DNA of 64,000 nucleotides. It comes from Kiritimatiellia bacterium. Lineage in GTDB: Bacteria; Verrucomicrobiota; Kiritimatiellia; RFP12; JBMNHG01. The stretch covers positions 310,001 through 374,000 of the forward strand of contig JBMNHG010000011.1 of the NCBI GenBank assembly GCA_050950285.1, given 5' to 3'. The notes under the pieces were generated by a model. That model was given only the letters and a program-made list of their open reading frames with translations. It was not told where the DNA came from and did no database searches. Made by a program: the position numbers and the translations under genes. Of this stretch, positions 30,045 through 53,691 are shown piece after piece; position 1 is the stretch's first letter; each line of letters starts with the position of its first letter.

Positions 30045-30083
30045 TCGCTCGTTTGCCTTGCCGTATATTGAAGGAGATCCTCC

Positions 30084-33000
30084 ATGAAACAGCACCTTGA
30101 CCGCTATCCACGTCCCAGTCCGTTCAAACGCATCATGGCGGGCATCGCCGCCTGGAGCGTCCTGGTGGGCCAGCTCGCCCCCGTGATGGCGCTGCCCACC
30201 GGAGCCAGCGTCCGCAGCGGCACCGTCTCCTTCGAGGAGTCGGCCGGCAATCTGCGCGTGTTGCAGGAGACCGACCGTGCGATCGTCCACTACTCCTCCT
30301 TCAACATCGGCGCCTCCGAAGCCGTCGAGTTCGTCCAGCCCGGCTCATCGTCCGCCATCCTGAACCGGATCGGCGGCGGCAGCCCCAGCGACATCCTGGG
30401 CTCCCTGTCGGCCAACGGCAAGGTCTACCTGATCAACCCCAACGGCATCATCTTCGGCTCGTCGGCGCGCGTCAACGTCGGCGGGCTGGTCGCCTCGAGC
30501 TTCGATATCTCGGACAGCGACTTCGCCTCCGGCACCATGCGCTTCAAGGGCGGCGGCGGCTCCGTGGTCAACCGCGGCTCGATCTCCGCCGGCAGCTTCG
30601 CCTACCTCGTGGGCGGCACCGTCGACAACAGCGGCTCGATCTCCGCCGGTTCCGTGGTGCTCGCGGCCGGCCAGAACAGCGTGGTCATCGATCGCGCCGC
30701 CGGCGGCGAGATCCGCCTGGTCATTGACGAGGTGGAGTCGGCGGTCGATGCATCCACGGGTGCAGCGGCCGAAGACGCGGCGGCGGAGCCCGATGCCGGC
30801 ACCGCTCCGGCACCCGCCGGCACCACCGACCTGCTGGCCGACCCGACGGTCGTCAACTACGGCGTCATCCAGTCCGGCGAGGCGACGGGCGGCGAGGTCG
30901 CCCTGCAGGCCGCCAACGTCGGACAGTTCGGCACGATTCTGGCCGACGGCCTCGAGGGTGACGGCGGTCGCATCGCGCTCTTCGCCGACAACACCGTCTC
31001 CCTCAGCGCCGACAGCGTCACCACCGCCAACGCCGGTCTGGCGGGCGATGGCGGCTCGATCGAGATTGTCGGTGAGAACTTCCTGCGCCTGGCCACCGGC
31101 GCCCGGATCGAGGCGCGCGGCGGCAGCGAGTCCGGCGACGGCGGTTTTGTTGAAACCAGCGGCAAGCGCGGCTTTGTCATCGGCTCCGCCCCCGACGTCG
31201 GTGCCGACAACGGCAAAGCAGGCACGTGGCTGATCGATCCCTATAATATCGAAATCACAGCGGGGACGGGATACGATGGCATGGATACTACGGGTGATAC
31301 CTGGGTTCCAGACGGCATGCTTACTCCAGCCCAGATCAGCGTCGGCACCATTAAGGAAGGTCTTATTAATGCCGGCTTTGTAAAGATTACGACTACTCCA
31401 GATCCGGACGCTGGAAACGAAGAAGGCAACATAACTTGGCTTTCGGACGCCGACATCACCTGGGACACTGCCGCCAGCTTGGAGTTGAAAGCCCATGGTA
31501 ATATCACGATTGGAGGAACCGTAACTGCGGCGAGCGGATCGCTGACACTGATTGCCGACCTCGAAAACAATAACGTCGGTGATATTACGCTGAACAATTT
31601 GATCAAGGTCGGTACCCTCACCATGAAGGGCAATTCGATCAACCAGACCGGCGGTTCGCTGACGGTTGGTGGTGCCACCGACCTAACAGGCGGGACGATC
31701 ACCCTCGAGCAGGCCAACGTTCTCGGCGCGATCACAGTGAACGATGGCTCGGGCGACGTATCAATTACGGAAGACGACGCCATCAACGTTGCGAAGATCA
31801 CGCGTACGACCGGCAGCGTGACGCTGAATGCGTCTGTTGGCGACATCACTATTGGAGAAATTTCGACGCCAAACAATGTCACATTAACTGCGACGGCAGG
31901 TTCGATCCTTGACGACGCCGACGACGACGTGACCGACGTGACCGGCAACATAGTGACGATGACGGCGGCGAGTGGCGTCGGCGAGGCGGCTGGCAATGGC
32001 TCCCTCGACACGAAGGCCAACAGCCTGGCCGTCTCCGTGAAGGGTGCCGGCCTGATCAACATCTCCGAGGCGGACGATGTTACGCTGGCGGACGTCGACA
32101 CGTTCAACGGCGCGATCACCATCGCGGCCGGCGGCACGATCACGGTCGGGACGGTGACCTCCGGCGAGGGGGATGGCGCGACGCTGGGCGCGGTGACGCT
32201 TACGGCGGGGAACGCCGCCAAGACCGCGAAGATACTGGACGACGCCAACGACGCCGCCGTTGACATCACCGGCTCCGCCGTGACGCTGACGGCGGACGCG
32301 GGCGTCGGCGCGGAAGGCAATTCGCTCGACACGGCCGCGGACAGCCTGGACGTCTCGGTGACTTCGGCGGGCCTGATCAACATCTCCGAGGCCGACGATG
32401 TTACGCTGGCGGACGTCGACACGTTCAACGGCGCGATCACCATCGGGGCCGGCGGCGACATCAGGGTCGGGACGGTGACCTCGGGCAAGGGTGAGGGCGC
32501 CACGCTGGGCGCGGTGACGCTGACGGCGGGGAACGCCGCCAAGACCGCGAAGATACTGGACGACGCCAGCGACGCCGCCGTTGACATCACCGGCTCCGCC
32601 GTGACGCTGACGGCTGACGCGGGCGTCGGCGCGGATGGCGATTCGCTCGACACGAAGCCGCCGGCAGCCTGGACGTCTCGGTGACTTCGGCGGGCCTGGT
32701 CAACATCTCCGAGGCGGACGACGTGACCCTCGCGGACGTCGACACGCTTCGACGGCGCGATCACCATCGCGGCCGGCGGCGACGATCAGGGTCGGGACGG
32801 TGACCTCCGGCGAGGGGGAGGGCGCCACGCTGGGCGCGGTGACGCTGACGGCGCGGAACGCCGCCAAGACCGCGAAGATACTGGACGACGCCGATGCCGA
32901 CGCCGCCGTTGTGGACATCACCGGCTCCGCCGTGACGCTGGCGGCGGACGCGGGCGTCGGCGCGGAAGGCGATTCGCTCGACACGAAGCCGCCGGCAGCC

Positions 33001-36000
33001 TGGACGTCTCGGTGACTTCGGCGGGCCTGGTCAACATCTCCGAGGCGGACGATGTGACGCTGGCGGACGTTGACACCGCCGACGGCTCGATTACCGTGAC
33101 GGCGGGCGGGACGATCACCGCGACGGACGTTGCGAGCCTGACGGACAAGGACGGCAACGACATCACCCTTACGGCCTCCTCGGGGGACATCGTGGTGGGG
33201 ACGGTGACCGCGGGCGCGACGCACGGGGACGTGACCCTGACCTCTACGGCCGGCTCGATCAAGCAGGGCGATGCGACGGCGCAGGTGACAGGCACGGATG
33301 TGAAGCTGACGGCGGGGACGACGATCGGCGCGACGGACGCACGGCTGGGCACGAAGGCCGGGACGATCGAGTTCACGGCCGGCGGCAATGTCTACATCAC
33401 GGAGGCCGACGGTGTGACGGTGGCGGGCAAGACAACGGCCAACAACGGCCTGATCGACATCAAGACAACGGGCGGGACACTGACGGTCGGCGCGGTCGGC
33501 GATCAGACGGGTCTTTCCGCTCACGGTTCCGGCAGCGTGACTCTCGTCGCGCAGGGCGACGACAGCGACGTGGAGGTGAAGCAGAAGGTCTCCTCCGGCA
33601 GCGGCAAGATCTCGGTCACGGCTGCGGATGCGGTTAGCCTGGACGAGGGCCTGACGACGGGCGGCGGCAAAGTCACGGTGACGGCCACCGGTGGAGATGT
33701 GACGAGCAAGGATGCGGGCACGATCAAAACGACGGCCGCCGCCAACAGCGGCACCGCCTCGGGCGCTGTGGATGTGAACGCCGGTGGCGCAGTGAATCTG
33801 GCCGGCGCGATCACCACGGCCGGCGCGGCCAATAATAACGGAGCCGGCAGCGACGGCGGCACGGTGACCGTCACGACGACCGACGGTGCCGTCACGCTTG
33901 CGGCTGTGACGACATCGGGAGGCGCCTCGACGTCTGCCGGAGCCAATGGCGGCAACGCCGGCAACATCACCGTGACCAGCGGCGATGCCGGTGACGACGC
34001 GACGCACGACATATCATTAAGCGGTACATTGACGGCTCTCGGCGGAGCAGCCGGTCCTGGCGGCACGGACGGAACAGATGGCATGGTCGTCCTTAACGCG
34101 GATGGTGCGATCATAGACCAGCAGAACGACAAGGTTGGGCATGATGACGAAGGCTTTGCGAAGCAGACGGCTTCTCCGCCGGACGATGATCGCGTTGTCA
34201 ATATCGCGGCCGGTCAATTGAAGTTGACCGCCAAGGGGGATATTGGTGCCGCAGGCAATCCGCTGGACATCACCGTTGATACACTGGCGGCTCAATCTGC
34301 AAATGGCAGCATCTATCTGTATGAAACCGATGCGCTGACCATCGGCACGGTTGACGGACTTTCCGGCGTGACTGCGGACAACCACGCCAAGGTCGAGACG
34401 ATTGACGGAACGTTGACGGTCGACCAGGCGGTGAAGGCCACGAAGGGCGACGTTCTTCTGGCGGCGAACGACCAGACGCCCGAGGCGGCTCCCTTCTCAG
34501 ATGTGATCCTGAAGGCGGGCGTGACGGCCGGCGGCAACGTGACGGTGCTGGCGCGCGACTCGGTCGAGCAGAAGGTTGTACGAGAGCACGGGCGTGAAGG
34601 TCGACAACGTGGCCTTCGCGGGCGTGAACCGCGTCAGGCTCGACTCCGACACGACGGCGGTCGTCGGCAAGGACGACCTGGGCGGCCTGGCCGCCGGTAA
34701 TCACGCCAAGCTGGAGACGATCGACGGCGATCTGACGGTCGACCAGGCGGTGAAGGCCACGAAGGGCGACGTTCTTCTGGCGGCGAACGACCAGACGCCC
34801 GAGGCGGCTCCCTTCTCAGATGTGATCCTGAAGGCGGGCGTGACGGCCGGCGGCAACGTGACGGTGCTGGCGCGCGACTCGGTCGAGCAGAAGGTCGTTC
34901 TGGATGCCAACGATAAGCTCCAGAGCCAGGGCGACATCACGGCCGGCGGCACGATCGACGTCCAGGCATACGGCGGCTCGATCGTGATGGAGACGCGCAA
35001 GGGCAAGGACGCTTCCGATCAGGCCGCGTGGTTCGACACGGTCTCCCAGACCCAGGGCAAGAACATCCGCTACGAGGCGAAACAGGACGTGAAGCTTGGC
35101 GTGCTGGACGCGCGGACGGCGGCGGACCGGGCATCTGGCAAGCTGGATGAGCAGGCCAACTGGGGCGATGTCGCGGTTGTTGCCGGCGGCAGCATTTCGG
35201 ACGCCCGGACTGATACGGTTGAACACGAGGCCGATGGTTTTGCAAAACAAAACGGCGACAAGCGCACCGTGAATGTGTTTGCGGAAGATGCGGCGTTCAC
35301 CGCCACGGCCGGCTCGGTCGGGCAGGCGGGCAATCCGTTGGACACCGAGGTCGCCACGCTGGCGGCGTCGGCCACGGCGGACGGCGGCAGCATCTACCTG
35401 TACGAGAGCACGGGCGTGAAGGTCGACAACGTGGCCTTCGCGGGCGTGAACCGCGTCAGGCTCGACTCCGACACGACGGCGGTCGTCGGCAAGGACGACC
35501 TGGGCGGCCTGGCCGCCGGTAATCACGCCAAGCTGGAGACGATCGACGGCGATCTGACGGTCGACCAGGCGGTGAAGGCCACGAAGGGCGACGTTCTTCT
35601 GGCGGCGAACGACCAGACGCCCGAGGCGGCTCCCTTCTCAGATGTGATCCTGAAGGCGGGCGTGACGGCCGGCGGCAACGTGACGGTGCTGGCGCGCGAC
35701 TCGGTCGAGCAGAAGGTCGTTCGGGATGCCAACGATAAGCTCCAGAGCCAGGGCGACATCACGGCCGGCGGCACGATCGACGTCCAGGCATACGGCGGCT
35801 CGATCGTGATGGAGACGCGCAAGGGCAAGGACGCTTCCGATCAGGCCGCGTGGTTCGACACGGTCTCCCAGACCCAGGGCAAGAACATCCGCTACGAGGC
35901 GAAACAGGACGTGAAGCTTGGCGTGCTGGACGCGCGGACGGCGGCGGACCGGGCGTCGGGCAAGCTGGATGAGCAGGCCAACTGGGGCGATGTCGCGGTT

Positions 36001-38874
36001 GTTGCCGGCGGCGGCATTTCGGACGCCCGGACTGATACGGTTGAACACGAGGCCGATGGTTTTGCAAAACAAAACGGCGACAAGCGCACCGTGAATGTGT
36101 TTGCGGAAGATGCGGCGTTCACCGCCACGGCCGGCTCGGTCGGGCAGGCGGGCAATCCGTTGGACACCGAGGTCGCCACGCTGGCGGCGTCGGCCACGGC
36201 GGACGGCGGCAGCATCTACCTGTACGAGAGCACGGGCGTGAAGGTCGACAACGTGGCCTTCGCGGGCGTGAACCGCGTCAGGCTCGACTCCGACACGACG
36301 GCGGTCGTCGGCAAGGACGACCTGGGCGGCCTGGCCGCCGGTAATCACGCCAAGCTGGAGACGATCGACGGCGATCTGACGGTCGACCAGGCGGTGAAGG
36401 CCACGAAGGGCGACGTTCTTCTGGCGGCGAACGACCAGACGCCCGAGGCGGCTCCCTTCTCAGATGTGATCCTGAAGGCGGGCGTGACGGCCGGCGGCAA
36501 CGTGACGGTGCTGGCGCGCGACTCGGTCGAGCAGAAGGTCGTTCTGGATGCCAACGATAAGCTCCAGAGCCAGGGCGACATCACGGCCGGCGGCACGATC
36601 GACGTCCAGGCATACGGCGGCTCGATCGTGATGGAGACGCGCAAGGGCAAGGACGCTTCCGATCAGGCCGCGTGGTTCGACACGGTCTCCCAGACCCAGG
36701 GCAAGAACATCCGCTACGAGGCGAAACAGGACGTGAAGCTTGGCGTGCTGGACGCGCGGACGGCGGCGGACCGGGCATCTGGCAAGCTGGATGAGCAGGC
36801 CAACTGGGGCGATGTCGCGGTTGTTGCCGGCGGCAGCATTTCGGACGCCCGGACTGATACGGTTGAACACGAGGCCGATGGTTTTGCAAAACAAAACGGC
36901 GACAAGCGCACCGTGAATGTGTTTGCGGAAGATGCGGCGTTCACCGCCACGGCCGGCTCGGTCGGGCAGGCGGGCAATCCGTTGGACACCGAGGTCGCCA
37001 CGCTGGCGGCGTCGGCCAAGGCGGGCGGCAGCATCTACCTCTACGAGAGCACGGGCGTGAAGGTCGACAACGTGGCCTTCGCGGGCGTGAACCGCGTCAG
37101 GCTCGACTCCGACACGACGGCGGTCGTCGGCAAGGACGACCTGGGCGGCCTGGCCGCCGGTAATCACGCCAAGCTGGAGACGATCGACGGCGATCTTACC
37201 GTCAACAAGCCGGTGAAGGCCACGAAGGGCGACGTGCTGCTGGCGGCCAAGGAAGGCGATCTGACGATCGATGCCGCTGTCGATGCCGGAAGGCACGCGG
37301 GGCTGATCGCCAGCGGAAAGGTTGACGAGAACAAGGCCGTGTCGGCAGGGGAGAGCAAGACGGTTCAGGCCGGCGGGGATGTCGTGATCAACGAGTCCGG
37401 CAATGCGCGGGATCTCTACTACACGACCGGTGGCGACATCACGATCAAGACCCTGATCACGGCCGACAACAGCGTCGCGCTCGACGCCGGTGGCGACATC
37501 ATCCATGGCCAGCTCGCAGAAAAAGATGACATCAAGGCCCAAAACATCCTGCTGCTGGCCGGTGGCGATATCGGCGAAGGCAACCGCGTAGTGACCGATG
37601 CCGACACGCTGGCGGCGCGCGCGGGCGGCAGCATCAGCCTGCTGGAAAAGGGCGATGTCAACATCGCCTCGCCCGGTGTCATGGTGAAGGTTCCCCAGCT
37701 CGACTCGACCACCCGCGATGTCGGCGCCAATGCCAGCGGCATCCAGGCCGGCGGGGAGCTCGATCTGGAGATCGAGGGGAACGCGAATGCCAACACGATT
37801 GCCGCGGGCGGCAATGCCGACGTGAATGTCGGCGGCAGCCTCGATGCGGGCACGATCACCGTCGGCCGCCAGTTCAACCTGGATAGCGGCGACTTCTCCT
37901 TCGACCGCCTGCGGGCCGGTTCGGTCGAGGCGACGACCGGCAACATCCGCATGGGCGATGTGCAGACCGGTTCGGCGCGCTTCGACTCCTCCGGCAACAT
38001 CACCTACGGCAACGGCACCCTGCGCGCCAGCCGCCTGGAGATGACCGCCAGGGGCAGCATCGGCGCCAACAACCGTCCCCTGATGCTGGATGTCGGCACC
38101 ATCGGCAACGCCAGGGCCGGACGCGACCTCTACCTGCGCGAAGTCTCCGGCGACATGAACATCGCCGGCCAGGTGGTGGCCGGGAACCATCTCCAGCTCG
38201 AAGTCCCCGCCGGCAACATCGTGGATGCCGACAACGACGGCCGTGTGCCGATCAATAGCATCGGACCCGGCAATGCCGACGTGGTGGCGCGGACGGCGAA
38301 ACTGGACGCCCGCAAGGTCGGCACTGCTGCCAACCCCCTCGAGGTCTCGATTGCCGGCATGCTGACGCTGGACTCGACGAAAGCGGCTGACAAGAACGAT
38401 CCGGGCTACCTCTGGGTGCACATCAACGGTCGTGTTGGCAAGGGTGCGCTCGACATCGAGTACGGGGAAGGCAGGAACGTTCCGGGCCTGATCATCTACA
38501 ACGGCCAGCTGGTCGGCGGCGATGCCGCCCTGCTGCGCCAGGTGTTCCGTGCAGAGGCCTTCATTGTCGAGACCCCCGAACTCCGCTCGCGCCAGGGCGT
38601 CTTCGGCAACCCCTTCTTCGTGCATACCGATCTGGACGTCGCGGAAGCCACCGCACTGGGCTTGTTCGACTTCCTGATGGCCGGGCGCGCCAGCATCATC
38701 GTTGCCGGCGATGAAGAGACAGCCCGCACGCTGATTGATTGGGACGTTGACCAGCTGCTCATCAGTGCAGCAATTGACCCTCCCGGCCTGCGGCGGTTGT
38801 ATGTTCGGAACTTCTACGAGGAGGCCGCCCAGGAGAAGGCGGCCAAGGAACAGCCTGCGGGAAACAAACCATAA
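30084..38874 (+). CDS. TpsA filamentous-haemagglutinin-like exoprotein (~2900 aa); frameshifts at 32.65-33.0 kb and ~34577
   Basis: TPS domain (FNIGASE, ILNRI, ANGKVYLINPNGIIFG, GGFVETSG, GTWLIDP), then continuous beta-helix repeats across ORFs 30084, 32635, 33012 and 34576. Confidence 0.92.
32045..33075 (+). repeat. ~325-bp tandem repeats (3+ copies) in TpsA
   Basis: Recurring GLINISEADDVTLADVDT...GAVTLTAGNAAKTAKILDDA. Confidence 0.85.
34380..37240 (+). repeat. 822-bp (274-aa) near-perfect tandem repeats in TpsA, three copies plus partial units
   Basis: Identical ORF-track shadows at 34701, 35523 and 36345. Confidence 0.95.
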
Positions 38875-38967
38875 CACCGAGGGACGTTCGTCGTGTCTTG
38901 TTGTAAATCAATTGTGACCAACACCCACCACCAGTCGACCGGTGGTGGATGGAACGAGGTGCGCTTT

Positions 38968-41901
38968 ATGAAACATCTATTCAGGCTTGCATGTGCCGTT
39001 GTGCTGATCCACGGAAGCGTGAGCGCGCAAGTCGCGCCCGGTGCATTTGTGGTGCGCCAACTGGACGATAGCCGCTCGCCGTTGCTGGACATAGCGATCG
39101 ACTCTCCTCTTCGAACGGGCGCGGCGGAAGTGACCTATCTGGAATTGGGGGGCGACGGGAACCCTTTCCCCGGATCATCCGCCCACACGGCCGCAGCAAC
39201 GCCGGGCAGAGATTACCTGCAGGGGCGTGCGGCCTATCCCATGAACGTCCCGTTTTGCCGGGTCATCATGACGTGGTCTGCACCTGTTCGGGACGTCGTG
39301 GGTTTTTGCGGCAAATTGGACAAACGTGGCGGGGTGTATCTCGGTGGCGGACTCGCTTCCTGGTCCAAAGTGGCTGCCGGATCGGTCTCGTTTGGTGTTT
39401 ATGATCCATGCGAGGGAAAACTGCATGTAGTAGCGGATGCCGGTAGCGCGTGGCGCACGCTCCGGCAGTCGTCGGAAGCGTGGATAGAAAGCCATCCCCG
39501 TGGCTTCTTCCGCGCTCTCACGGGAAACTACGACAAGGGTTTCCGGCCTTTGGACGAGGTGTTGCGGAACCTTCGCGATTCGGTGGCCGGAGTCGATCCG
39601 GCAGGGGTTGCGCAGACGCTTGTGATTGTCGTGGGCCGCTTTTCCACCTCCCAGAACCAAAACAATGCGCTGCGTATCGATTCCAACATTGCGCAGACAT
39701 TGCAGGCGGTTGCCGTGTACGACATGGGCTCGACAGTCGAAACGCGCAAGTCGGTGCTTGATGGACTGAGATCGTGGCAGACTTGCGGAACGCTGATCGG
39801 CTGGGAGAAGCTCAACGAGCGTAGCGGCGGCCGCCGGATGCCGTTGGCGAAGTTCTATGAGACGTCTCATGCCCTGCTCGTTGACATGGTCGGCGAGCGG
39901 CGACTCGCGACGGTGAAAACCCAGCGTCCTGACCATGCCGCCACCAGCCCCTTCCGGATAGGGTGGGTTGGCGCACCCGACGTTTGCACGGTGGTGCTGA
40001 GGCGCCAGAAGCCCACCGAGGCGATTGCCCGTCGGATCAAGGAGTTGTGGGGGGCGATCCGCGAACGGCTGGTTGCCCATGATTATTTGCCTACGCTTGC
40101 CATGAAAAAGGAGCTGGAGAGCTTGGATCCGGCGGAAGCCGTGGCGGCAGCCAAGGAGATCATCGCCGCCTGGCAGTCCCAGATCGAGGCGGTCGCCAAG
40201 CGCGGCAGCCTGGATGAGGCGGCAAAGATTCTGGCGGTTTTCCGCAAGTCCGGATTGCCTTCCGAGGCGGATGTCGCGAAGTCTGCCGAAGTGATTTGTG
40301 CTGTATGGGGTGAAAAAATTGCGGACTTGATCTCGGTTGGCAAGCTCCCGGATGCAGCGCAGGTTTTCAAGAGCCTCCGAGAGACGGGGCTGGCATCGGA
40401 AGAGTTGTTGAAAGAGCTTGCTGGAAGTGTCAAGGTTGCATGGTTGGAGACTATCGTTTCCAAGGCATGGGCAGGGGATCTGGGTGGCGCACGGGCCGAA
40501 CTCGAGCGCTTGCGTCAGTCGGATCTGCCGGACGCGGCCGAAATGGATGTCAGTGCCGTGACAATGCTGTGGGCCTTCACCCAAGGGCGTCTGGAGGCAT
40601 ATGATAACGCTGTGGCGCAGGGCGACCAGCAGGCCGCGCTTGCGGTGCGTGCCGCCATGTCCATCGTTCCCCAGGAAATCAGGCAGCTTGGCGGTTCGCG
40701 GGCGGATGATTCCAGAATGGTGGCAATCGTGGCCGCCTGGCTGCGCACGACGTTGGATCATGCGCAAGATCTGTATGCGACAGCGCCTATGATAGACGAC
40801 TGGGAATTGATCAGGAGAGCCCTCCTGCACTGCGAGAAGATTCCTGTTCCTGTGGAATGGCAGCAATTGTGGCGTGTCGCGGTCGAGGGAGATGGCATGG
40901 GGGTGGTTGATGAGGTGCGCGACGGAATCAAGTCGACCGAGGCGATGACCCCGGCCTATCTCTCGTTGCTGCGGGGCGAAACGCTGCGTGCGGGGATGAC
41001 GGTCGCCCGTGATGCCGCGAAAAGCCGTGCGCTTTCGGCCGAGGATTTCGTCGCCGCCATCCAGCGCGGCTTCAAGATGGTGGACAGCAACCAGCGCATC
41101 TTCTACGCGGAGGCATCCAGTACGTTTTTCGAGGAGACGCCGTTGCTTTGGAAGCTCAACGAGGAAGCGCCAGACGGTTTGCCGCCGCTGGATCGCGATT
41201 TCCTGGACCGCGTCACGGAAAAAGAGAGGGCGGTGTTGACGCCGCTCGAAGTCGCCATCACACCCAAGCAGACACGCCAGCTCTGCTGGCTCTGGCTTCC
41301 CTATGGGCCGGATGCCATGGTGGCAATCAAGGTTTGCGGCGAGCTGACCGATCACGAACGCAGCGTCATTCGCAAGGCTTTTGCTGATGGACTCGAAAAG
41401 GAGGATGCGCAACGCGCCGCTGAACTGGGTGGGGCGGGTGTGATGGCGCATGTCGCCATGGCCACCATGGTCCGCAGTCTGGATGTGACCGTCGATCTCA
41501 ACAAGGAGGACAAGCCGGTGGAATCCAGCGCGGATGCGGCCTGGGACTATTTGAAGAGGTTGACCGAGGCGTTGCCGATGGAAGAGGCCTTCGCGCATCT
41601 TCACCGTCTTGGTCGTCCCGAGGGTGCGGCGGATGCGGCCTGGTCGGTACTTGAGGAGACGGATTTGCCGGAGGATAGGCGGCCGACAGAATTCACGGAA
41701 GGTGCACCATCGGATGCCCGTTGCGAAGAGGATCGCATGGTGACCGTGCCGGCCGTGCCCTTCCGCCGCCAGTACCGCTCTGGCGGCACCTGGGTGCAGG
41801 AGTTCTGCGTGCCCTTCCGTGTCAAGCGCGGTTTTCCGGTTGCCACCCTGCGGCTGGCATTGCCGATTCTGGTGGATATCGATGAGGAGGTCGAGCAATG
41901 A
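38968..41901 (+). CDS. Large exported hypothetical protein (~977 aa) with three ~45-aa helical repeats
   Basis: ATG 38968 after GAGG; signal peptide ending VSA; stop overlaps the next ATG. Confidence 0.75.
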   Translation: MKHLFRLACAVVLIHGSVSAQVAPGAFVVRQLDDSRSPLLDIAIDSPLRTGAAEVTYLELGGDGNPFPGSSAHTAAATPGRDYLQGRAAYPMNVPFCRVIMTWSAPVRDVVGFCGKLDKRGGVYLGGGLASWSKVAAGSVSFGVYDPCEGKLHVVADAGSAWRTLRQSSEAWIESHPRGFFRALTGNYDKGFRPLDEVLRNLRDSVAGVDPAGVAQTLVIVVGRFSTSQNQNNALRIDSNIAQTLQAVAVYDMGSTVETRKSVLDGLRSWQTCGTLIGWEKLNERSGGRRMPLAKFYETSHALLVDMVGERRLATVKTQRPDHAATSPFRIGWVGAPDVCTVVLRRQKPTEAIARRIKELWGAIRERLVAHDYLPTLAMKKELESLDPAEAVAAAKEIIAAWQSQIEAVAKRGSLDEAAKILAVFRKSGLPSEADVAKSAEVICAVWGEKIADLISVGKLPDAAQVFKSLRETGLASEELLKELAGSVKVAWLETIVSKAWAGDLGGARAELERLRQSDLPDAAEMDVSAVTMLWAFTQGRLEAYDNAVAQGDQQAALAVRAAMSIVPQEIRQLGGSRADDSRMVAIVAAWLRTTLDHAQDLYATAPMIDDWELIRRALLHCEKIPVPVEWQQLWRVAVEGDGMGVVDEVRDGIKSTEAMTPAYLSLLRGETLRAGMTVARDAAKSRALSAEDFVAAIQRGFKMVDSNQRIFYAEASSTFFEETPLLWKLNEEAPDGLPPLDRDFLDRVTEKERAVLTPLEVAITPKQTRQLCWLWLPYGPDAMVAIKVCGELTDHERSVIRKAFADGLEKEDAQRAAELGGAGVMAHVAMATMVRSLDVTVDLNKEDKPVESSADAAWDYLKRLTEALPMEEAFAHLHRLGRPEGAADAAWSVLEETDLPEDRRPTEFTEGAPSDARCEEDRMVTVPAVPFRRQYRSGGTWVQEFCVPFRVKRGFPVATLRLALPILVDIDEEVEQ

Positions 41902-42545
41902 GCGTTTCAAGAAAAACGTATGGCCACTACGGGGTGCTGCGCCCATTGGCGCTATCTGCGGCGATGGTGCTTGGAATCGCGATCTGCCGGGCTGATGGCG
42001 TGGCGGAGGACATGGCTTCCGGCACCGGGTCTGGAATGGGGGACACAGCCATCTTGCGCGATTGGGAAAAGGACTCCATCGCCAGCATCGAATACAGCGC
42101 CAACAAGCGCGACGGCCAGCGTGTCATGCTTCTGGGCTATGTCGCCGAGACGCAGGCCTCCGACGCTACGATGGGGGACGCGTACATGCTGATGGGATAC
42201 GGCAAAGGCTCTATCCTGGTTCAGTCCTACGGGCGGCGGCCCATGCCGAACGACGACGTGCTGCTGCTGGGCATCGTGCATGTCGATCTCGGTGACCCAT
42301 ACGAGCGGATCTTCGTCAGCGAGATTGGCCGGTTTGACGTGGACCGCGAACAGGTACGCGACTGGGCCAACCACAGCGAGTTGTTTGCCATCGAGAACTG
42401 TTTCCGGACACGGGTTTGCGTCAATGACGCCGGGCAGGTCTTGCCTCCGATCTCGGTGGGCGATTATTTTGAAAGAGGGAAACGCACGACGAAGGCGGAA
42501 CTTGACAAGCACTTGGAAGCTGGCAAAACCGTGGCGCAACCCTGA
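41898..42545 (+). CDS. Exported hypothetical protein, paralogue of the ectodomain of the downstream FHA protein
   Basis: Signal peptide; RVMLLGYV / RPMPNDDVLLLGIVHVD / ENCFRTRVCVNDAGQVLPP align with 42615-44000. Confidence 0.75.
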   Translation: MSVSRKTYGHYGVLRPLALSAAMVLGIAICRADGVAEDMASGTGSGMGDTAILRDWEKDSIASIEYSANKRDGQRVMLLGYVAETQASDATMGDAYMLMGYGKGSILVQSYGRRPMPNDDVLLLGIVHVDLGDPYERIFVSEIGRFDVDREQVRDWANHSELFAIENCFRTRVCVNDAGQVLPPISVGDYFERGKRTTKAELDKHLEAGKTVAQP

Positions 42546-42614: not shown

Positions 42615-44000
42615 ATGAACACAACGAGCAGTAAAGCAGGCAGGATGACCGCAAGAACCGCATGGCGTGGCTGGCTGGGCGGCGCGTTGGCGGTGTGGCT
42701 GGGCTGGGTTGGCATGGTGTCGGCCCAAACGGGAGGCGGGGAGGGTGGCCCCTCTATGGTCTTCCGACATTGGAAGCATACCACGGTAGAGGTTCTCAGC
42801 AAATGGAATCCGAACGACGAGCGAAGCGTCAATTGGCGGCAGCAACGCGTGCGTCTGATCGGTTGGGTCAGCAGCACGAAAGCGGGCGGACCCGGCGAGG
42901 AGGACCAGTTCCAGATTTCCGACACCGCCGGATACGTATTCGATGTGCGGGCCGCCAGTTTTCGTCCGATGGTCAACGACTGGATCTACATTCTGGGAAC
43001 CGTGCAAGTCGATATCAAGGGCCGAGCATACTTGCAGGAGTATCAGCGTTTCCAGGTGAAAGGCAAGGATTTGGAGGATTTGCGCGAGTGGATGGATTTC
43101 AACCTTCCGAGCGACAAAACTCCGCTCCGGTATGCCGATGAAAACTGCTTCCGGCGCTTTGTCGTACTCAACAAAGCGGGCGAGCCTATGCCACCGCTAG
43201 GCAAGGGCGAATGGGAGAAGGGCACGGAAACCAGAATTGATGACATAGAGGAGTGGATTTCTACCGGAGAAGCCATCCGCCCGCCGAATGGTCAGACGGG
43301 GCAGACGGGGCAGACGACGGGGCAGCAGGTTGATCCTCCGCCAAATGAAAAAACGTGGCTGGAAGAGAATGGCTTGTGGCTCGTCATCATAGCGGTACTC
43401 CTGATCCTTATCTTTGGCGCAATGATTATTTTTAGGAATGGGGGGGGCAAGGGTGGCGGCAATACCGGCGGTTCCACGACTACGTCTGGTGGTAGGGACA
43501 AAGGTGATGGCGACGGCTCTGGCAAAGGTAGTGGCGAAGAGGAGCAGCCGCCGCAAAAGCCGTTGCGCGATACGGGCTTTGGCGATCCGGACAAGACGAA
43601 TGTGCTCGAGGATGGTTCCTCGCTGCTCTACAAGGATCAGACGCAGGTGTTGTGCGGCTACTCGCTCAAGATCCTCTCCGGCGGCACTTCGGCAGGGCTG
43701 ACGCTCTATTTGGGCAACAGCACGCTTCTGGGGAAGGCGGTGGACGACTACAAGGGCTACTTCATTAAGCTGCACATGGACGACCGCCCGGAACTGGCGC
43801 AGCATTGCAGCCGCCACTATGCCAAGATCACACATCGGGGTGATGCCTTGCCGGCCATTTTCGATGTCGAGGTGGTCAACAGTAGCGGGAACCCCGTGAC
43901 GGTGAATGGCGAGACGATCCGCCGAAAGGGTGCGACGCTTTCCGCGCAGGTCGGCAGCCGCATAAAGCTGATGCCGGACTGGGAGTTTGAGATTGTCTAG
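42615..44000 (+). CDS. Signal peptide + ectodomain + TM helix + cytoplasmic FHA domain
   Basis: TM LWLVIIAVLLILIFGAMIIF; FHA-like LLGK...CSRHYAKI...SGNPVTVNG. Confidence 0.75.
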   Translation: MNTTSSKAGRMTARTAWRGWLGGALAVWLGWVGMVSAQTGGGEGGPSMVFRHWKHTTVEVLSKWNPNDERSVNWRQQRVRLIGWVSSTKAGGPGEEDQFQISDTAGYVFDVRAASFRPMVNDWIYILGTVQVDIKGRAYLQEYQRFQVKGKDLEDLREWMDFNLPSDKTPLRYADENCFRRFVVLNKAGEPMPPLGKGEWEKGTETRIDDIEEWISTGEAIRPPNGQTGQTGQTTGQQVDPPPNEKTWLEENGLWLVIIAVLLILIFGAMIIFRNGGGKGGGNTGGSTTTSGGRDKGDGDGSGKGSGEEEQPPQKPLRDTGFGDPDKTNVLEDGSSLLYKDQTQVLCGYSLKILSGGTSAGLTLYLGNSTLLGKAVDDYKGYFIKLHMDDRPELAQHCSRHYAKITHRGDALPAIFDVEVVNSSGNPVTVNGETIRRKGATLSAQVGSRIKLMPDWEFEIV

Positions 44001-44044
44001 TTCCGGCTCTGCCGCACATGCCAGTGGCAATGGCTGATTGATGT

Positions 44045-44075
44045 GATTGCGGCAGCCGTTGCGGCTGCCGCAATC
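44045..44075. other. Perfect 14-bp stem-loop between the FHA and PP2C genes
   Basis: GATTGCGGCAGCCG-TTG-CGGCTGCCGCAATC. Confidence 0.7.
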
Positions 44076-44092
44076 GGTTTACGGGGGTGCCC

Positions 44093-45277
44093 ATGCGCAA
44101 TATCGGGGAATTCCATCTCTCGTGTCAGATGGATCGTGATGCCAACGAGGACCGGGTCTGGGCCGGGCGGGTGCGTTTGCGGGATGGCACACGTGCCGTG
44201 CTGGCGTGTGTGGCGGATGGCGTGGGGGGCGCGCAACACGGTGCGGAGGTCGCCGAGATCGCCTTGCAGATGTTGCGTAAAGCGCTGCAGGAGGCATGTG
44301 CCGATATCCTCGAGACCGAGGTGGCGGCCAACGAATGGGCACGTGCCCTGGCCGAGTCGCTCCAGTCGGCGGTTGCCGCACAGTATGCGGGCGGCTTCAG
44401 CACCCTGTGCGCGGTGGTGCAGTGCGGACGGCGGCGGCTTGTGCTGAACGTGGGTGACTCGGGTGCCTACTGGGTCTCCAGGGATAGCGCGAGGCGGCTG
44501 ACCGACGAGCATACCGTGGCAAGTTGGATGCTGCAGGGGGGACAGGCCGAGGAGGAGATTCCCCCTAGAATGTTCAAGGCGCTGCACCGCGCAGTGGGCA
44601 AGCAGGCATCCGGCGGGGAGCTCTTCGACATCGCCATAGAGGCCTGCAATGAGAAGCGCGGCTGGGTTGTCGTGGCCAGTGACGGGGTGCTGGACTACAT
44701 CGGCGGCACCGAGTTGCGCGCGGCAGGTGCTGCGGCAACTTCAGCGTCCGGGATGGCGCGGCGCATCATGCGCGAGACGTTGCGTCTTGGGCGCCGGAGC
44801 GGGCGCAATCTCGACAACGCCTCCCTGGCGGTGCTGGCTTTACGACCGCGTGCCGCTACCACTATTAAATGGGTGGCAGCGCTTGCGGTGTTGGCGCTGA
44901 TACCGGTTTTCTGGCTTTTGCCATGGGGAGACGTGAAACCACCTGACGGGAAACCAAATGCTGAGCCCGGTATACCTGCCACTAATGAAACCAGCGATAT
45001 CGTCTGGACGAGAATTCAATTGCCCGAAGGTGTTGACGAGTGGCCACGCAATCCAGTGGCTGTCGCATCCACGAAGTGGGGCGGTCAACAAGAGCTGCCA
45101 CTGAAAGTAAGGCCGGATCAGTCTAATACCGCATGTCTGATAATCATGGGGTCTGGAGAATACAGCAATAAATCCATGCGTGTAGTTTTGAAACTAGACC
45201 CAAGGGAATTGATCTACGAGGGCCGGGTTGGTAATAGTGAATGGAAGAGGGTGTTTCCAAATGATGGCGGATCGTAA
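44093..45277 (+). CDS. PP2C/PPM Ser/Thr phosphatase with a TM helix and a C-terminal ectodomain
   Basis: NED, VADGVGG, NVGDS, LTDEHT, ASDGV, DNAS; TM WVAALAVLALIPVFWLL. Confidence 0.9.
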   Translation: MRNIGEFHLSCQMDRDANEDRVWAGRVRLRDGTRAVLACVADGVGGAQHGAEVAEIALQMLRKALQEACADILETEVAANEWARALAESLQSAVAAQYAGGFSTLCAVVQCGRRRLVLNVGDSGAYWVSRDSARRLTDEHTVASWMLQGGQAEEEIPPRMFKALHRAVGKQASGGELFDIAIEACNEKRGWVVVASDGVLDYIGGTELRAAGAAATSASGMARRIMRETLRLGRRSGRNLDNASLAVLALRPRAATTIKWVAALAVLALIPVFWLLPWGDVKPPDGKPNAEPGIPATNETSDIVWTRIQLPEGVDEWPRNPVAVASTKWGGQQELPLKVRPDQSNTACLIIMGSGEYSNKSMRVVLKLDPRELIYEGRVGNSEWKRVFPNDGGS

Positions 45278-45440
45278 AAAGACGTCGATGGCTCGTCTTC
45301 AACAAAGGGTCTGCCTGCCAAAACGACGGACAAGTAGTCGTTCGGACACATGAAAACATGTTAAGATGCCATTTCCGGGATATAAACGCGCAGGCGGAGT
45401 GAAGGGCAATGACTGTTGGCGTTCAAGATTGCCCTTGCCT

Positions 45441-46823
45441 ATGTCATGCCCTTGCCTTTTTTTACATAGCGTGCTTGTCCTGCTTCTCCTGTTTCTTCCG
45501 AGAAGCGGCGTAGCACAGTCCGGAGCCTTAATCGGGACGGCCTCAAATGACTGGCCTTCTTTTAAAAAAATTGAAATCAAACATAACGATGAAACGAAAT
45601 CACTTGAGGGGGTGGGCAAAAAAATAGAATTCGCAGATGGTCTTTTTGTTAACCTTTATACTGAGAGTAATAATCAAGGCCCTCAGGTTCAGTTGAAATC
45701 CAAGGACAAAAGGGCTTCTATCAACTGCACTTTTACCCTCTATGATTCCAGTAACAAACCATTTAAAAAAGGTTCAATCCAATGGACTGTAGGAGGAAAC
45801 AATTATGACACATCTTTTGAACCTATTGTTGAACCTGATAACTGGGCGAGGATGTTGTGGACGAGCATTGCTGTCGTGTTAGCACTCGTCTTGTTTGTAG
45901 GCATGCTGTTTAGGCGCAAAGATGGTTTGAATACCACAGGGGCTCGGAACAAGCGGAATGCGAAGCTGCGGGTGAAACCGGTGGCCGGATCATGGTCCAC
46001 GGCTGCTCATCTTGCGACCGGAGGTCTGGCGGAAGTCCGCCTCGTGCGCAAGAACCCGTTAGCCCCCCGCTATATCATGAAGATTCTGAAAGCACACTAT
46101 GCCGATGATGCGGCGTTTGTGAAGGCGCTGCATTACGAAACAGATGTCTTGTGCCATCTGGAGGCGACGGGTGTGCGCCGGGTGCCGCGTCTGATCGCGG
46201 CAAGTTGGGATCGTCCGGATGCAGGCGGCGAGCCATGGTACGTGATGACCCGGATGCCGGGGATGACGCTCAAGAATGCCAACCTCTCCTCATTCAGTTT
46301 GCGGGTGCGTCTGCGGCTGATCGCCGCGATAGCGACAACACTGGCGGAATGCCATGCCGCTGAGGTGGCGCACCGCGATCTGAGCCCCGACAACATCATG
46401 GTGCGGTCGGGAGCGGGATGTCGTTTCGTCGGATTGGTGGACTTCGGCAGTGCCTCGTTACAGGGGCGGCGCCACCCGCTCGGGCGCAAGTGGGTTCTGA
46501 AACAGCGCTTTGCCGCGCCGGAACAACTGCAGCAGGGGCTGGATGTGGCGGGGCCGGCGGCAGATGTCTATTCGCTGGGGATTGTGGCCTGCGAGCTTTT
46601 GCTTGGCAGCCATCCCTTCGCTGCGGAGGGCCAGTTGCCCCGACTGGAGGATCATCTGGGCTTTGACCGCGTCCAACTTGCCCAGCGGTTGACGCAGCGA
46701 GGTCTTAAAGCCGAGGTTGCCCAGGCAATCTGCTGTGTCATGCTGGCGGCGGATCCAGCGTCGCGCGGAACGATGCGCTTGTTGCTGACGGTGCTGCGGG
46801 GGGCCTATCCTTTTTTGCGCTGA
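45441..46823 (+). CDS. Hanks-type Ser/Thr kinase with signal peptide, N-terminal ectodomain, TM helix and C-terminal kinase domain
   Basis: TGGLAEV, IMKIL, HRDLSPDNIM, DFG, AAPEQ, DVYSLG; TM MLWTSIAVVLALVLFVGMLF-RRK; start could be 45366. Confidence 0.9.
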   Translation: MSCPCLFLHSVLVLLLLFLPRSGVAQSGALIGTASNDWPSFKKIEIKHNDETKSLEGVGKKIEFADGLFVNLYTESNNQGPQVQLKSKDKRASINCTFTLYDSSNKPFKKGSIQWTVGGNNYDTSFEPIVEPDNWARMLWTSIAVVLALVLFVGMLFRRKDGLNTTGARNKRNAKLRVKPVAGSWSTAAHLATGGLAEVRLVRKNPLAPRYIMKILKAHYADDAAFVKALHYETDVLCHLEATGVRRVPRLIAASWDRPDAGGEPWYVMTRMPGMTLKNANLSSFSLRVRLRLIAAIATTLAECHAAEVAHRDLSPDNIMVRSGAGCRFVGLVDFGSASLQGRRHPLGRKWVLKQRFAAPEQLQQGLDVAGPAADVYSLGIVACELLLGSHPFAAEGQLPRLEDHLGFDRVQLAQRLTQRGLKAEVAQAICCVMLAADPASRGTMRLLLTVLRGAYPFLR

Positions 46824-46872
46824 CATGTGCCACCAACTCTGGACTATGTTTGATACTGACGCGAGGAGTGCT

Positions 46873-47979
46873 ATGAAGAAACGACAAGTCGGATGGCGGG
46901 TGCCCGGAGCGCTGTCATGGAGACGGGGCAGAGAGACGGCTGGTTCGTCGCCGTCATGGCGCTTGTGGGGGCTGCGATTGATGCTGGCCACTGGGCTGGC
47001 GCTGGGGATGGCGATACCGGAGGCCCGTGGCGATAAGGCGGCGTACACGGATTTTGTGCAAGTGTATGTCGTGGGTGATGCGAACCGGGATGGCAGTTGG
47101 AATGCCCGGCCGGTCGCCCGCCGGATCCATGAGGTTTTTTTGCCGCGGGTTGGCGATGATGCCATGGCGATGCAGGCTATCGGAGTTCGTGATTCCGGTG
47201 ACGTTTATTCGCTGAAGGTTGCCGAGGTAGCGGAACGTGGAATTGTCCTGTCGCCCCGGCGGGATTGTGGGTTGGATCTATCGGGTTTGCATGTTGGCGT
47301 TACAAGGTGGCAAAGTTGGTGGACGCGCAGCAGGAAAGCGGTGGAGAAGCTGGAAGCGAGCGCACGTATTGCCAGGTTTTCCGAGCAAGCGCAGTTCTTT
47401 TTACAGCCTCCCTACAGGGAGTTGGTCATCGAGGAGGCGGCGCGCACGCCAGTTGCCCATGCGTATTGGCGTGGCATCCGTAGTGAGTTGGACGCTGGGT
47501 TGCAAGAGGTCGTCAAACTGAGCGAGGCCGAACTGATTGAGCGGCGAGGCGCTCTGACGTATGCCTTGAAACGCTGTCGTGCGCTTGCGAAAGACTGGAA
47601 AGACGATCATGATAAGGATTCCGAAGCGAGTTGGGAGGGAGATACGGTGCGCCACCTCCAGCGGGCGGAAGACGCCCTTAACAAGCTCGAGAGTCGCGGC
47701 GTCTTGCGCATCATCAACAGGAGCGGACGCGATCTGGAGGTGCGGCTGGATACAATCCGGCCTTCTACTTATAGTCTGTCACAGTGGGTTGTTGAAAAGC
47801 GCGGCGCCCCGTTCCGGCTGGTCGCTGGTGGTTCGTATGACCTTGTAGTCAGCGAGGAGCCCCGTTGGCGGCGTTGCTCCTGGCGGCTGCCGGGATCAGA
47901 AATAGAGCGTGGAGGCGACGTTCGCGAAGTTAAGCCAGGCAAACTTGTTGAGTGGCAGATCAAGGGGGCGCGGGAGTGA
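46873..47979 (+). CDS. Exported hypothetical protein
   Basis: GAGGAG RBS; hydrophobic signal ending ARG; stop overlaps the next GTG. Confidence 0.65.
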   Translation: MKKRQVGWRVPGALSWRRGRETAGSSPSWRLWGLRLMLATGLALGMAIPEARGDKAAYTDFVQVYVVGDANRDGSWNARPVARRIHEVFLPRVGDDAMAMQAIGVRDSGDVYSLKVAEVAERGIVLSPRRDCGLDLSGLHVGVTRWQSWWTRSRKAVEKLEASARIARFSEQAQFFLQPPYRELVIEEAARTPVAHAYWRGIRSELDAGLQEVVKLSEAELIERRGALTYALKRCRALAKDWKDDHDKDSEASWEGDTVRHLQRAEDALNKLESRGVLRIINRSGRDLEVRLDTIRPSTYSLSQWVVEKRGAPFRLVAGGSYDLVVSEEPRWRRCSWRLPGSEIERGGDVREVKPGKLVEWQIKGARE

Positions 47980-50604
47980 GTTGCTGCGGCCACCGGATCG
48001 GCATCGTGCATGCGGTGGCGGGATTGTACCTGTGTTCAGCCGCGGCGTTTGGTGCAGAGAACCGGGAAGACTATGTGTACAAGGCAATGGCAACAGGCAA
48101 CGATAACGGTCTTGTGACGGTGTGGATCGACGAGCCGAAGAACACCTCGTTGTGCAAGGAGGGCGACAACGCATACATGTACGGGGTGCCAGAAAAGTAT
48201 AGGGAGTTTAGAGTAAACAACGTTCAGGGTAACAATATAACTTTGGAGTCGGTTGCAAAAGGGTTTTCATTAAATGTGGAAGACGCAGAAGTATGGCTTG
48301 TCACCTGGAGCGATGTCGGCAGGCGCTGGCAGGAAAAACTGCAAAGCAGGAAAGGCAAGGATGTAGAGGAGGTGCTCCGGGAGGTTGCCGCGTTTCGTGA
48401 TCCCAAAGGTGGCAGGTACAAGGAGAATGCCTATCTTCGCACGCGCAGCGAAGTTGATGCCGTTTGGAGCAGTGTGCCACTGAACGATAAGTTAATCGAG
48501 AACTATAAGAAAGCCTTTGACCGCAATCCACCCAGCGGTGACGGGGACGCTGGTGGTTAATAACACGGGAGAAGTGCCGCTCAAGGTGGAGATAGGCGGT
48601 CAAACGGGGGACGTGAAACCGCATCAGAGTGTGGATCTGTCCGTGACCGCGGGTGTGAAGCATTCCGTGAAGTATGAGCCAACGGGTGAAAATGCAGATG
48701 ATTTCAATGCGGGTGAGAAAGAAGTCATGGTGCCTATTGAAGGGAAATTGGCGACGGTCTTACTGGCGGCAACCGTGAAGGGCGATCCTGTGCTGACGGT
48801 TCGGAACACGGGCGCTGTGGCGTTGCAGGTGACGGTGCTTGCGGGTGGTGCCAAGGTCAAGGAAGGGACGTTCGAACTGGCGAAAGGGGCGTCTAGGGAA
48901 GTGACAGTACCGCCCGGCATGGACTTGAAGATTCGTTACGAAGCGCAGGAAGATTCGGCAAGTGACTATGACAAGGGCGAGGCTGTCCAGACGGCTCTGA
49001 AGCGCGGCACCACGGCGACGAAGGATTTAACGGCCACGTTGAAGCCGGAACCTGTGCTGACGGTTCGGAACACGGGCGCTGTGGCGTTGCAGGTGACGGT
49101 GCTTGCGGGTGGTGCCAAGGTCAAGGAAGGGACGTTCGAACTGGCGAAAGGGGCGTCTAGGGAAGTGACAGTACCGCCCGGCATGGACTTGAAGATTCGT
49201 TACGAAGCGCAGGAAGATTCGGCAAGTGACTATGACAAGGGCGAGGCCGTCCAGACGGCTCTGAAGCGCGGCACCACGGCGACGAAGGATTTAACGGCCA
49301 CGTTGAAGCCGGAACCTGTGCTGACGGTTCGGAACACGGGCGCTGTGGCGCTGAAGGTCACGGTGCTGGCGGACGGCGAGGCCGTCGGGAAAGCGTTCGA
49401 ACTGGAGAAAGGGGCGTCCTGGGAAGTGACAGTACCGCCCGGCATGGACTTGAAGATTCGTTACGAAGCGCAGGAAGATTCGGCAAGTGACTATGACAAG
49501 GGCGAGGCCGTCCAGACGGCTCTGAAGCGCGGCACCACGGCGACGAAGGATTTAACGGCCACGTTGAAGCCGGAACCTGTGCTGACGGTTCGGAACACGG
49601 GCGCTGTGGCGTTGCAGGTGACGGTGCTTGCGGGTGGTGCCAAGGTCAAGGAAGGGACGTTCGAACTGGCGAAAGGGGCGTCTAGGGAAGTGACGGTGCC
49701 ACCCCATGTGCCTTTGACGATCCGCTATGAGCCGTTGGACGCCATGATCGATGGCTATGTTGCGGACGAGGCCGTCCAGACGGCTCTGAAGCGCGGCACC
49801 ACGGCGACGAAGGATTTAACGGCCACGTTGAAGCCGGAACCTGTGCTGACGGTTCGGAACACGGGCGCTGTGGCGTTGCAGGTGACGGTGCTTACGGGTG
49901 GTGCCAAGGTCAAGGAAGGGACGTTCGAGCTGGAGAAAGAGGCGTCTAGGGAAGTGACAGTACCGCCCGGCATGGACTTGAAGATTCACTACGAGCCGAT
50001 TGGGAATGAGCGTGACGCCTTTGAGGCGGGGGAGGCGCATGCAGCGGCGTTGGAGCGCGGAACACAAGGCGCGGTTTCGCTGTCGGCGAGCAAATCGCTT
50101 GCCGGACGCTTGCAGGACGTTCGCGACATATTGGAAATCAAATTAATGGGCGATGTGACGTCACCAGAGGAGCCCATTCGTGATGAAGGAGAGGCTTGGG
50201 AGGCACTGGCGGTGTCGAAGAGGTGGTTCGACGATTTCATGAGAATCAAAGATTTGCCTCCGCCGGAGGAAGTTGCGAAAAATGCTCCTTGGAGCATACG
50301 CTTGGCTGGAACGAGCCTTGACCAGCTCGGAACGCAGGCTCACAGGATACGTGCCGCCGGACAGATGGCGAAACTCCCCCCGGTCGACAAGACGCCGGAC
50401 GACCTGAAGGAGTGGCGCAAGTGGGCTGAGGGTTTCTTAAGGGTGCTGGACGGCGGAGAGGCGGAGTTCAGCCGGGAGGCACAGGCGGCCTTTGTACTGG
50501 TTCAGCGTGGATTGCGGGCGCTTGACGACAACAGTCTGGCCGGCGTGGAGACGTTTGGCGAGTTTATACGCGGCAAGGGCGATGATGGCAAGAAGGGCCG
50601 GTAG
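47976..50604 (+). CDS. Exported protein with five tandem ~88-aa beta-sandwich-like repeats; probable frameshift at ~48530 joins ORFs 47952-48560 and 48517-50604
   Basis: Overlapping ORFs with no good start for the second; repeat PVLTVRNTGAVALQVTV...KDLTATLK. Confidence 0.7.
48787..50095 (+). repeat. 264-bp tandem repeat, five copies
   Basis: Unit starts at 48787, 49051, 49315, 49576, 49840. Confidence 0.93.
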
Positions 50605-53666: not shown

Positions 53667-53691
53667 CGGCGTTTCTTGAAAGGCAAGAACA

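Follow-up and report, generated by a model that had tools for sequence, protein, structure and literature searches.

The 64,000-nucleotide stretch of a Kiritimatiellia genome that was analysed here (the window) contains, on its forward strand, a gene cluster with the order Omp85-like transporter, exoprotein, 1002-residue protein, OB-like protein, OB-helix-FHA protein, PP2C-helix-ectodomain protein, Hanks-type Ser/Thr kinase and exported proteins (Table 1). From the 1002-residue gene onward the intergenic gaps measure -4 to 92 bases, and a scan of the window for promoters and terminators gave matches at chance level. As judged from sequence, the kinase is one part of a predicted operon that is conserved across several families.

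Table 1. Features of the kinase gene and its neighbours (positions in the window; residue numbers counted from M1 of the kinase frame unless the row concerns another protein)
Feature	Position	Strand	Description and basis
Two-partner secretion pair	26580..38874	+	Omp85-like transporter and filamentous-haemagglutinin-like exoprotein (several frames); TIGR01901 E 2.6e-24
1002-aa predicted exported protein	38893..41901	+	Conserved upstream of the FHA gene; homologues in L003, L006, L017, L050
Stand-alone OB-like paralogue	41898..42545	+	Predicted exported; 30% identity, E 1e-22
Membrane FHA protein	42615..44000	+	Predicted signal peptide, OB-like domain, helix, linker with T328 (KTNVL) and T343 (QTQVL), divergent FHA
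PP2C phosphatase	44093..45277	+	Predicted helix, variable C-terminal ectodomain (~44927-45274); Pfam PP2C_2 E 4.7e-9
Sensor-first Hanks kinase ORF	45366..46823	+	485 aa from M1, 460 aa from M26 (45441)
Predicted signal peptide	45441..45515	+	aa 26-50; hydropathy; cleavage after G-V-A judged by eye
Predicted periplasmic ectodomain	45516..45845	+	aa 51-160; seven-strand beta-sandwich, GC 0.39, fast-diverging; AlphaFold
Predicted membrane helix and RRK stop-transfer	45855..45920	+	aa 164-182 and 183-185; hydropathy and charge
Kinase domain	46005..46784	+	Pfam, aa 214-473; ATGG loop, K239, E258, HRD, DFG, APE, D400
Catalytic loop HRDLSPDN	46371..46394	+	aa 336-343; Ser340 at the usual Lys position
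L378-K379 at the usual G-T site	46497..46502	+	K379 a likely substitute for the lost catalytic-loop Lys; covariation
Two predicted exported proteins	46825..50604	+	After the kinase; second with beta-rich repeats, frame change near 48533

The transporter matches the Omp85 family at E 5e-10, below the cut-off. The exoprotein region (30072-38874) lies in several frames and contains exact internal repeats of about 822 bases, and its C-terminal motif region, common to L003, L006, G349 and G417, holds no known toxin domain according to Pfam or NCBIfam. The 1002-residue protein gave no family or structure match, and the guess that it contains a vWA domain was dropped for lack of support. The FHA protein gave no PDB match, and its FHA domain scores under the Pfam cut-off in the window (E 0.086) and above it in the relative from G408. 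In an alignment of five FHA proteins the Ser-Arg pair is present in all five and a Thr at the T343 position in four, the Gly-Arg pair being Gly-Lys in the window and in L004. Motifs of the form T-x-x-L suit FHA ligands. In G417, zinc ribbons replace both the OB-like domain and the Thr motifs of this protein. The DG motifs of the window PP2C are intact, and the PP2C of G349 has no ectodomain. Of the two genes downstream of the kinase, the second is split into two frames (48517-48560) by one extra base near 48533 relative to a continuous gene in L003, which may reflect an assembly error or a real break.

Four families of the class to which the host belongs have the FHA protein, PP2C and kinase genes in this order, and in three of the four the trio follows a two-partner-secretion adhesin. 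The three genes and the two downstream of them are kept in L003 and L004, and L006 keeps all genes as far as the PP2C, where its contig stops. In G349 the transporter, the exoprotein, a homologue of the 1002-residue protein, the FHA protein, PP2C and kinase are accompanied by a second kinase; in G417 (L019:9090-10220) an ATPase-like gene is inserted between FHA protein and PP2C, with the exoprotein in front and the kinase behind; and in G408 the 1002-residue homologue, FHA protein and PP2C are followed by two sensor-first kinases in tandem. The C-terminal region of the adhesin was found upstream in L003, L006, G349 and G417, and no match was obtained in G408 with this exoprotein as query. After the operon, the window contains a gene combining a zinc ribbon with a bacterial PH domain and a TM7S3/TM198-like membrane gene (53001-54324), which are absent from that place in L003.

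The predicted layout of the kinase rests on hydropathy windows and charge counts, with the cleavage motif read by eye. The N-terminal hydrophobic segment (residues 26-44) has a Kyte-Doolittle value of 2.36 and is followed by P-R-S-G-V-A|Q, whereas the membrane helix (residues 164-182) reaches 2.56 and is followed directly by R183-R184-K185. Lys and Arg number one in the 15 residues before this helix and six after it, so that a single helix, with a positive-inside bias behind it, separates the N-terminal ectodomain from the C-terminal kinase. The kinase domain matches Pfam Pkinase at E 2e-22 (80.3 bits against a curated cut-off of 31.7). The order given in the initial annotation, namely signal peptide, ectodomain of about 110 residues, membrane helix, RRK and C-terminal kinase, is borne out by prediction and by Pfam, the signal peptide as an N-terminal hydrophobic segment, and the sensor-first layout is conserved in 11 of the 13 full-length family members. 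Candidate starts are M1 (45366), M26 (45441; database call P0002) and V36 (Atlas call). No clear Shine-Dalgarno match lies upstream of any of the three; the hydrophobic segment is intact from M1 or M26 and mostly retained from V36. The signal-peptide region is 92% identical to that of the L003 allele. An out-of-frame ATG after GAAGG opens a Cys-rich frame of 34 codons over this region (45409-45513), probably by chance. Among the eight above-cut-off kinases of the host genome (G000), a helix lies upstream of the kinase domain in this protein alone, downstream in six and nowhere in one. Two further kinase-like frames in this genome (C6:489025-489777 and C3:772473-773060) have no HRD loop recognisable by pattern search and are possible pseudokinases.

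Protein searches recovered close relatives with 89% (P0003), 74% (P0004) and 52% (P0005) identity, the next match lying already at E 1e-16, and a HMMER search of 1.84 billion representatives added P0122, P0123, P0124, P0144 and the fragment P0148. A genome search with an FHA profile led to G349 and G417, and a wider kinase profile, built with these two included and G408 left out, found G408 too. The layout of N-terminal hydrophobic segment, ectodomain of 80-130 residues, helix and terminal kinase is present in all full-length members except P0124, which has no N-terminal hydrophobic segment, and G349b, which has one hydrophobic segment and no ectodomain. In P0122, P0123 and P0144 the positive-inside bias is missing or runs the other way. 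For comparison, a helix just upstream of the kinase was found in 5 of 377 non-family kinases, several of them multi-pass, and anywhere upstream in 7, this control set being the nearest matches of the family and not a census, with three proteins without a recognisable motif left out. Among kinases of the same class an upstream helix occurs in one of 25 (L027; L046 left out). In a quick maximum-likelihood tree, 13 family rows (taking in the fragment P0148, leaving out P0003, and with G417 on a long branch of 3.83) separate from 31 controls with an SH-aLRT of 96, no bootstrap being run, and an earlier set of nine members separated from 95 others at an SH-aLRT of 99. The second family kinase of G349 (L017:13772-14707), with its single N-terminal hydrophobic segment, carries HRDLC together with GK, and the tandem kinases of G408 (L050:4434-7433) have ectodomains that are 30% identical, one of the two reading DFD instead of DFG.

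The family occurs in at least 4 of the 401 sampled genomes of the class, belonging to four families; this is a lower bound because only four candidates per genome were scored. Narrow profiles at strict thresholds matched only the host's own genome, that is 1 of 401 genomes of the class (A1, 1e-28), 1 of 401 of the phylum (A4, 1e-38) and 1 of 319 of the order (A4, 1e-32). These misses are partly false, as G349, G417 and G408 hold members, and the range is again a lower bound with three to five candidates scored per genome. A single-protein search of 41 relatives matched two, the second being an unrelated kinase, and a contig scan with the window kinase as query gave no match. No longer, fused form of the family was seen among 120 listed long matches, which is weak evidence. 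The listed holders of the locus come mostly from digester and bioreactor metagenomes and include no RNA holder; the near relative L006 belongs to a MAG labelled 'uncultured Lentisphaerales bacterium'.

All 16 PDB matches of the kinase at E<=1e-12 are bacterial PknA, PknB or StkP and none is eukaryotic, the closest solved kinases being Mycobacterium tuberculosis PknA (E 5e-20), PknB and StkP (PDB 4ow8, 1mru and 9ruj for the PknA/PknB/StkP/PrkC receptor group). The PASTA kinase profile NF033483 scores 78 bits against a cut-off of 450, and no PASTA domain is present. The HRDLSPDN loop and the replacement of the usual GT within VLKQRFAAPE, both pointed out initially, can be read at residues 336-343 and within the DFG...APE stretch at 359-386. 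The activation segment contains no Thr, and Ser only at S362 and S364. HRDxS kinases are known from myxobacterial kinome work. The P+1-loop Ser/Thr, which according to the accessible part of PMC6213207 normally contacts the catalytic loop, is absent, and its place is taken by Lys379, paired with Ser340. This pairing extends beyond the family: Lys occupies the Thr site of 'GT' in 26 of 40 non-family domains with Ser/Thr at HRD+2 and in 0 of 450 others, as it did in a smaller first set (10/11 against 0/100), although these sequences are related and the counts hence not independent. Within the family, 12 of 13 members combine Ser, Thr or Cys at HRD+2 with Lys at the Thr site, and G417 keeps both the catalytic Lys and the Thr, the reverse pair. 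Put most simply, the Lys would have shifted from one to the other of two neighbouring positions, HRD+2 and the 'GT' Thr site. Nine of the 13 members have also lost the Gly of 'GT', which the Lys swap leaves unexplained. No description of the swap surfaced in the literature searched.

The explanation favoured here, with a probability of roughly 0.6 for the whole, is that the protein would be an active single-pass receptor Ser/Thr kinase which phosphorylates Thr motifs of the FHA protein and is reset by the PP2C. What has been observed is the layout, the existence of a family, the pairing of the motifs, the order of the genes and the variability of the ectodomains; the remaining steps of the model are inferred. 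Following cleavage of the signal peptide, the variable sensor would be placed in the periplasm and the kinase in the cytoplasm. The ectodomain would bind a ligand in the envelope, the best candidates being one of the exported proteins of the operon itself or the adhesin next to it, and clustering would activate the kinase without phosphorylation of an activation-loop Thr, with K379 taking over the job of the lost catalytic-loop Lys. The T-x-x-L motifs at T328 and T343 of the FHA protein would then be phosphorylated, binding of phosphothreonine by the FHA domain would assemble a membrane complex, and the PP2C would reset the kinase-FHA system. Judged by analogy with the PpkA-PppA-Fha pathway and its periplasmic activator RtkS, what the system controls would probably be the export and adhesion proteins encoded beside it. 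Two of the alternatives weighed below, a non-specific ectodomain and an uncleaved N-terminal anchor, overlap parts of this model.

The ectodomain is much more variable than the kinase domain. AlphaFold, run on four ectodomains, predicts a seven-strand domain (pLDDT 77). With regard to a possible place in the immunoglobulin or fibronectin-III superfamily, Foldseek gave no match at E<=0.001, Atlas matches had TM values of 0.45-0.59, and the beta-sandwich matches are generic, the best structural match (Z 5.9, rmsd 3.2, 79 aligned residues) standing among mixed beta-sandwiches. Pfam has no match in the window ectodomain, and its low GC compares with 0.63 in the kinase domain. Identity to the window protein in ectodomain and kinase, respectively, is 75 and 96% for P0003, 39 and 90% for P0004 and 17 and 51% for P0005. 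Of 11 ectodomains compared, only those of the window, P0003 and P0004 can be aligned with one another, as can the two G408 paralogues, and that of G417 is Cys-rich. The PP2C behaves similarly: relative to L003, the kinase is 95% and the PP2C 96% identical, whereas their ectodomains are 75 and 37% identical. Against L003, the pN/pS ratio comes to about 0.9 over the full ectodomain of the kinase as well as over that of the PP2C, and to 1.1 over the first 69 codons of the kinase ectodomain, compared with 0.38 (on few differences) and 0.14 for the kinase and PP2C catalytic domains; tests on raw counts, uncorrected for site numbers, gave p values of 0.04 (kinase) and 3e-6 (PP2C). This pattern fits relaxed selection as well as diversifying selection.

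It is conceivable, though doubtful, that the ectodomain serves as a periplasmic spacer or dimerisation module under loose constraint, the real input arriving by way of the OB-like FHA protein or of the exported proteins. The pN/pS of 0.9-1.1 in the variable parts would agree with such a role, as would the small number of alignable ectodomains, the Cys-rich form in G417 and the complete lack of one in G349b. Against it, an ectodomain of 80-130 residues has been retained in 11 of 13 members, that of the window is predicted to form a compact sandwich, and the 40 residues nearest the membrane share 97% identity with L003.

The second alternative concerns the N-terminus. If the first hydrophobic segment were an uncleaved anchor, two helices would flank the periplasmic sensor in the manner of classical histidine kinases, and the protein would have the same sidedness and logic without being of type I. 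The segment scores as a 19-residue helix, the n-region from M26 (MSCPC) has no positive charge, a start at M1 adds 25 residues, and the known sensor-first CHASE2 kinases are multi-pass (PMC2176072, accessible part). Such an anchor is nevertheless judged unlikely, as the hydrophobic core is short in most members and leads into small-residue motifs (GVA|Q, AYA|G, AVA|G, SLA|Q and AYG|A). Small-residue motifs of this kind are the pattern of signal peptidase I sites.

The PP2C gives a signal of recombination. Over 44000-44800 the window agrees with L003 at 59 sites and with L006 at 14, and over 45000-45130 the counts are 4 and 38. Segments replaced on public contigs were found at 45029-45353 (X16), 45527-45634 (X18), and 45053-45205 and 45251-45313 (X17), these contigs having been aligned at 80% likeness and coming from related strains or species. 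The variable DNA thus consists of two patches, with the conserved signal-peptide region between them, and not of one cassette. No second copy of the kinase ectodomain or of the PP2C is present in the host genome, so that no silent cassette store was found, and profiles of the kinase and PP2C ectodomains have no similarity to each other (probability 0.3%). A speculative and rather improbable extension is that the operon would be a bacterial self/non-self recognition locus resembling a plant self-incompatibility locus, in which recombination would pass specificity from strain to strain and the cue read, differing between strains, would sit on the neighbouring giant adhesin or exported proteins. 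The corresponding design, offered just as tentatively, would pair a type I receptor kinase with a receptor phosphatase, the two genes having their ectodomain-coding ends turned towards each other and conserved catalytic domains on either side.

A third alternative is that the kinase domain is a pseudokinase or a weak scaffold kinase, given that the catalytic-loop Lys, the GT motif and the activation-loop Thr have all changed (S340 for Lys, L378-K379 for G-T and a Thr-less activation segment), and its pN/pS of 0.38 could be taken to point the same way. This is regarded as very unlikely. The catalytic set is complete (K239, E258, H336-D338, N343, DFG 359-361, APE 384-386 and D400), the Ser/Lys combination is tightly coupled over hundreds of domains and reverses as a pair in G417, and the adjoining PP2C retains its DG motifs. 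The absence of the 'GT' Thr noted initially is therefore real, but it is neither unique nor evidence of inactivity, because it appears to be half of a compensating Lys swap common in many other bacterial kinases. As far as covariation can tell, the motif oddity is no sign of a dead enzyme. The full-length AlphaFold model of the kinase is poor, with a pLDDT of 47.

Lastly, the N-terminal half might extend the frame upstream by chance or stem from a chimeric assembly, the real protein being a soluble kinase that starts after the helix. This can practically be dismissed: the GC step from ectodomain to kinase, the alternative starts L188, V203 and V206 and the lack of a clear ribosome site at M1 and M26 would accommodate it, but the same open layout recurs in 11 of 13 relatives with ectodomains mostly without shared sequence, the downstream starts likewise have no clear ribosome site, and public contigs span the junction. 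Contigs X6 and X9 each span 44600-46400 and show a single difference there, although this DNA may come from one of the two; a diverged allele occupies 45353-46922 on the single contig X18. The fusion of ectodomain and kinase is therefore not an assembly error.

The single-pass receptor model can be placed beside several known systems. Plant receptor-like and animal receptor kinases possess a signal peptide, an ectodomain, one helix, a short juxtamembrane stretch and a terminal kinase. The window kinase has the same layout, and in both cases the ectodomain is much more variable than the kinase. However, its kinase domain is bacterial according to its PDB matches, the trees containing no eukaryotic receptor kinase. 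The initially proposed match with plant and animal receptor kinases hence stands as one of layout. In sequence the kinase domain matched only PknA, PknB and StkP at E<=1e-12, and the likeness is best read as convergence, since this bacterial lineage has retained a eukaryote-style domain order with a kinase of bacterial type and exchanges its ectodomains freely.

PpkA, the kinase of the type VI secretion threonine phosphorylation pathway PpkA-PppA-Fha, is kinase-first. This pathway, with RtkS, likewise combines a membrane kinase, a PP2C and an FHA protein in one locus with periplasmic partners and adjoins a secretion system, as described in the accessible part of PMC6082577. In the window the neighbour is instead a two-partner secretion system, and the FHA protein and usually the PP2C are membrane proteins. 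The sheath family VipB/TssC (PF05943), the one core family searched, has no match in the host genome, which is 99% complete. PknA, PknB, StkP and PrkC, with PstP and FHA partners, share with the window kinase the single helix, PP2C and FHA genes alongside and the closest kinase domains. In these proteins the kinase is N-terminal and the sensor C-terminal, and HRDxK, G-T and an activation-loop Thr are present, whereas the window kinase has the inverted order, no PASTA and the Ser-with-Lys motif pair. The kinase-first arrangement is the norm for bacterial membrane Hanks kinases, as stated in the annotation and likewise in the accessible parts of two reviews (PMC4601284, PMC3708118). Sensor-first kinases, though rare, exist among the CHASE2 Ser/Thr kinases of cyanobacteria, in which an N-terminal extracellular sensor is followed by three helices (PMC2176072, PMC2877116, as far as their available text goes). 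These are also bacterial Hanks kinases with an extracellular sensor ahead of the kinase (PMC2176072), but the window kinase has one helix and a small unconserved ectodomain, whereas the CHASE2 domain is conserved. In the available portion of a PVC kinome survey (PMC11032199), accessory domains are mostly periplasmic in single-pass kinases and WD40/TPR domains lie at C-terminal ends, and the layout of the window kinase is not mentioned; the available portion of PMC3482391 mentions neither PP2C nor a protein kinase.

Neither the sensor-first layout nor the triad of kinase, PP2C and FHA protein is unique. Their combination, together with the swapped ectodomains and the adhesin link, appears to be undescribed: no description of the family or operon was found in the literature searched, most subscription papers being outside its scope. 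Taken together, the locus suggests a putative envelope-signalling system with a fast-changing sensor. With its kinase, phosphatase and FHA reader, it offers a compact and complete set of parts for testing how a kinase of sensor-first layout may be switched on without an activation-loop Thr, and for the large group of bacterial HRDxS kinases the Ser/Lys swap makes a prediction that can be tested directly. If true, the link to two-partner secretion would extend control by Thr phosphorylation beyond type VI secretion.

Just upstream of the transporter gene, on the reverse strand, lies a frame that by eye is transposase-like (25516-26400). The kinase region found no match in the same-genus genome G001, as would be expected of a mobile or patchy island.
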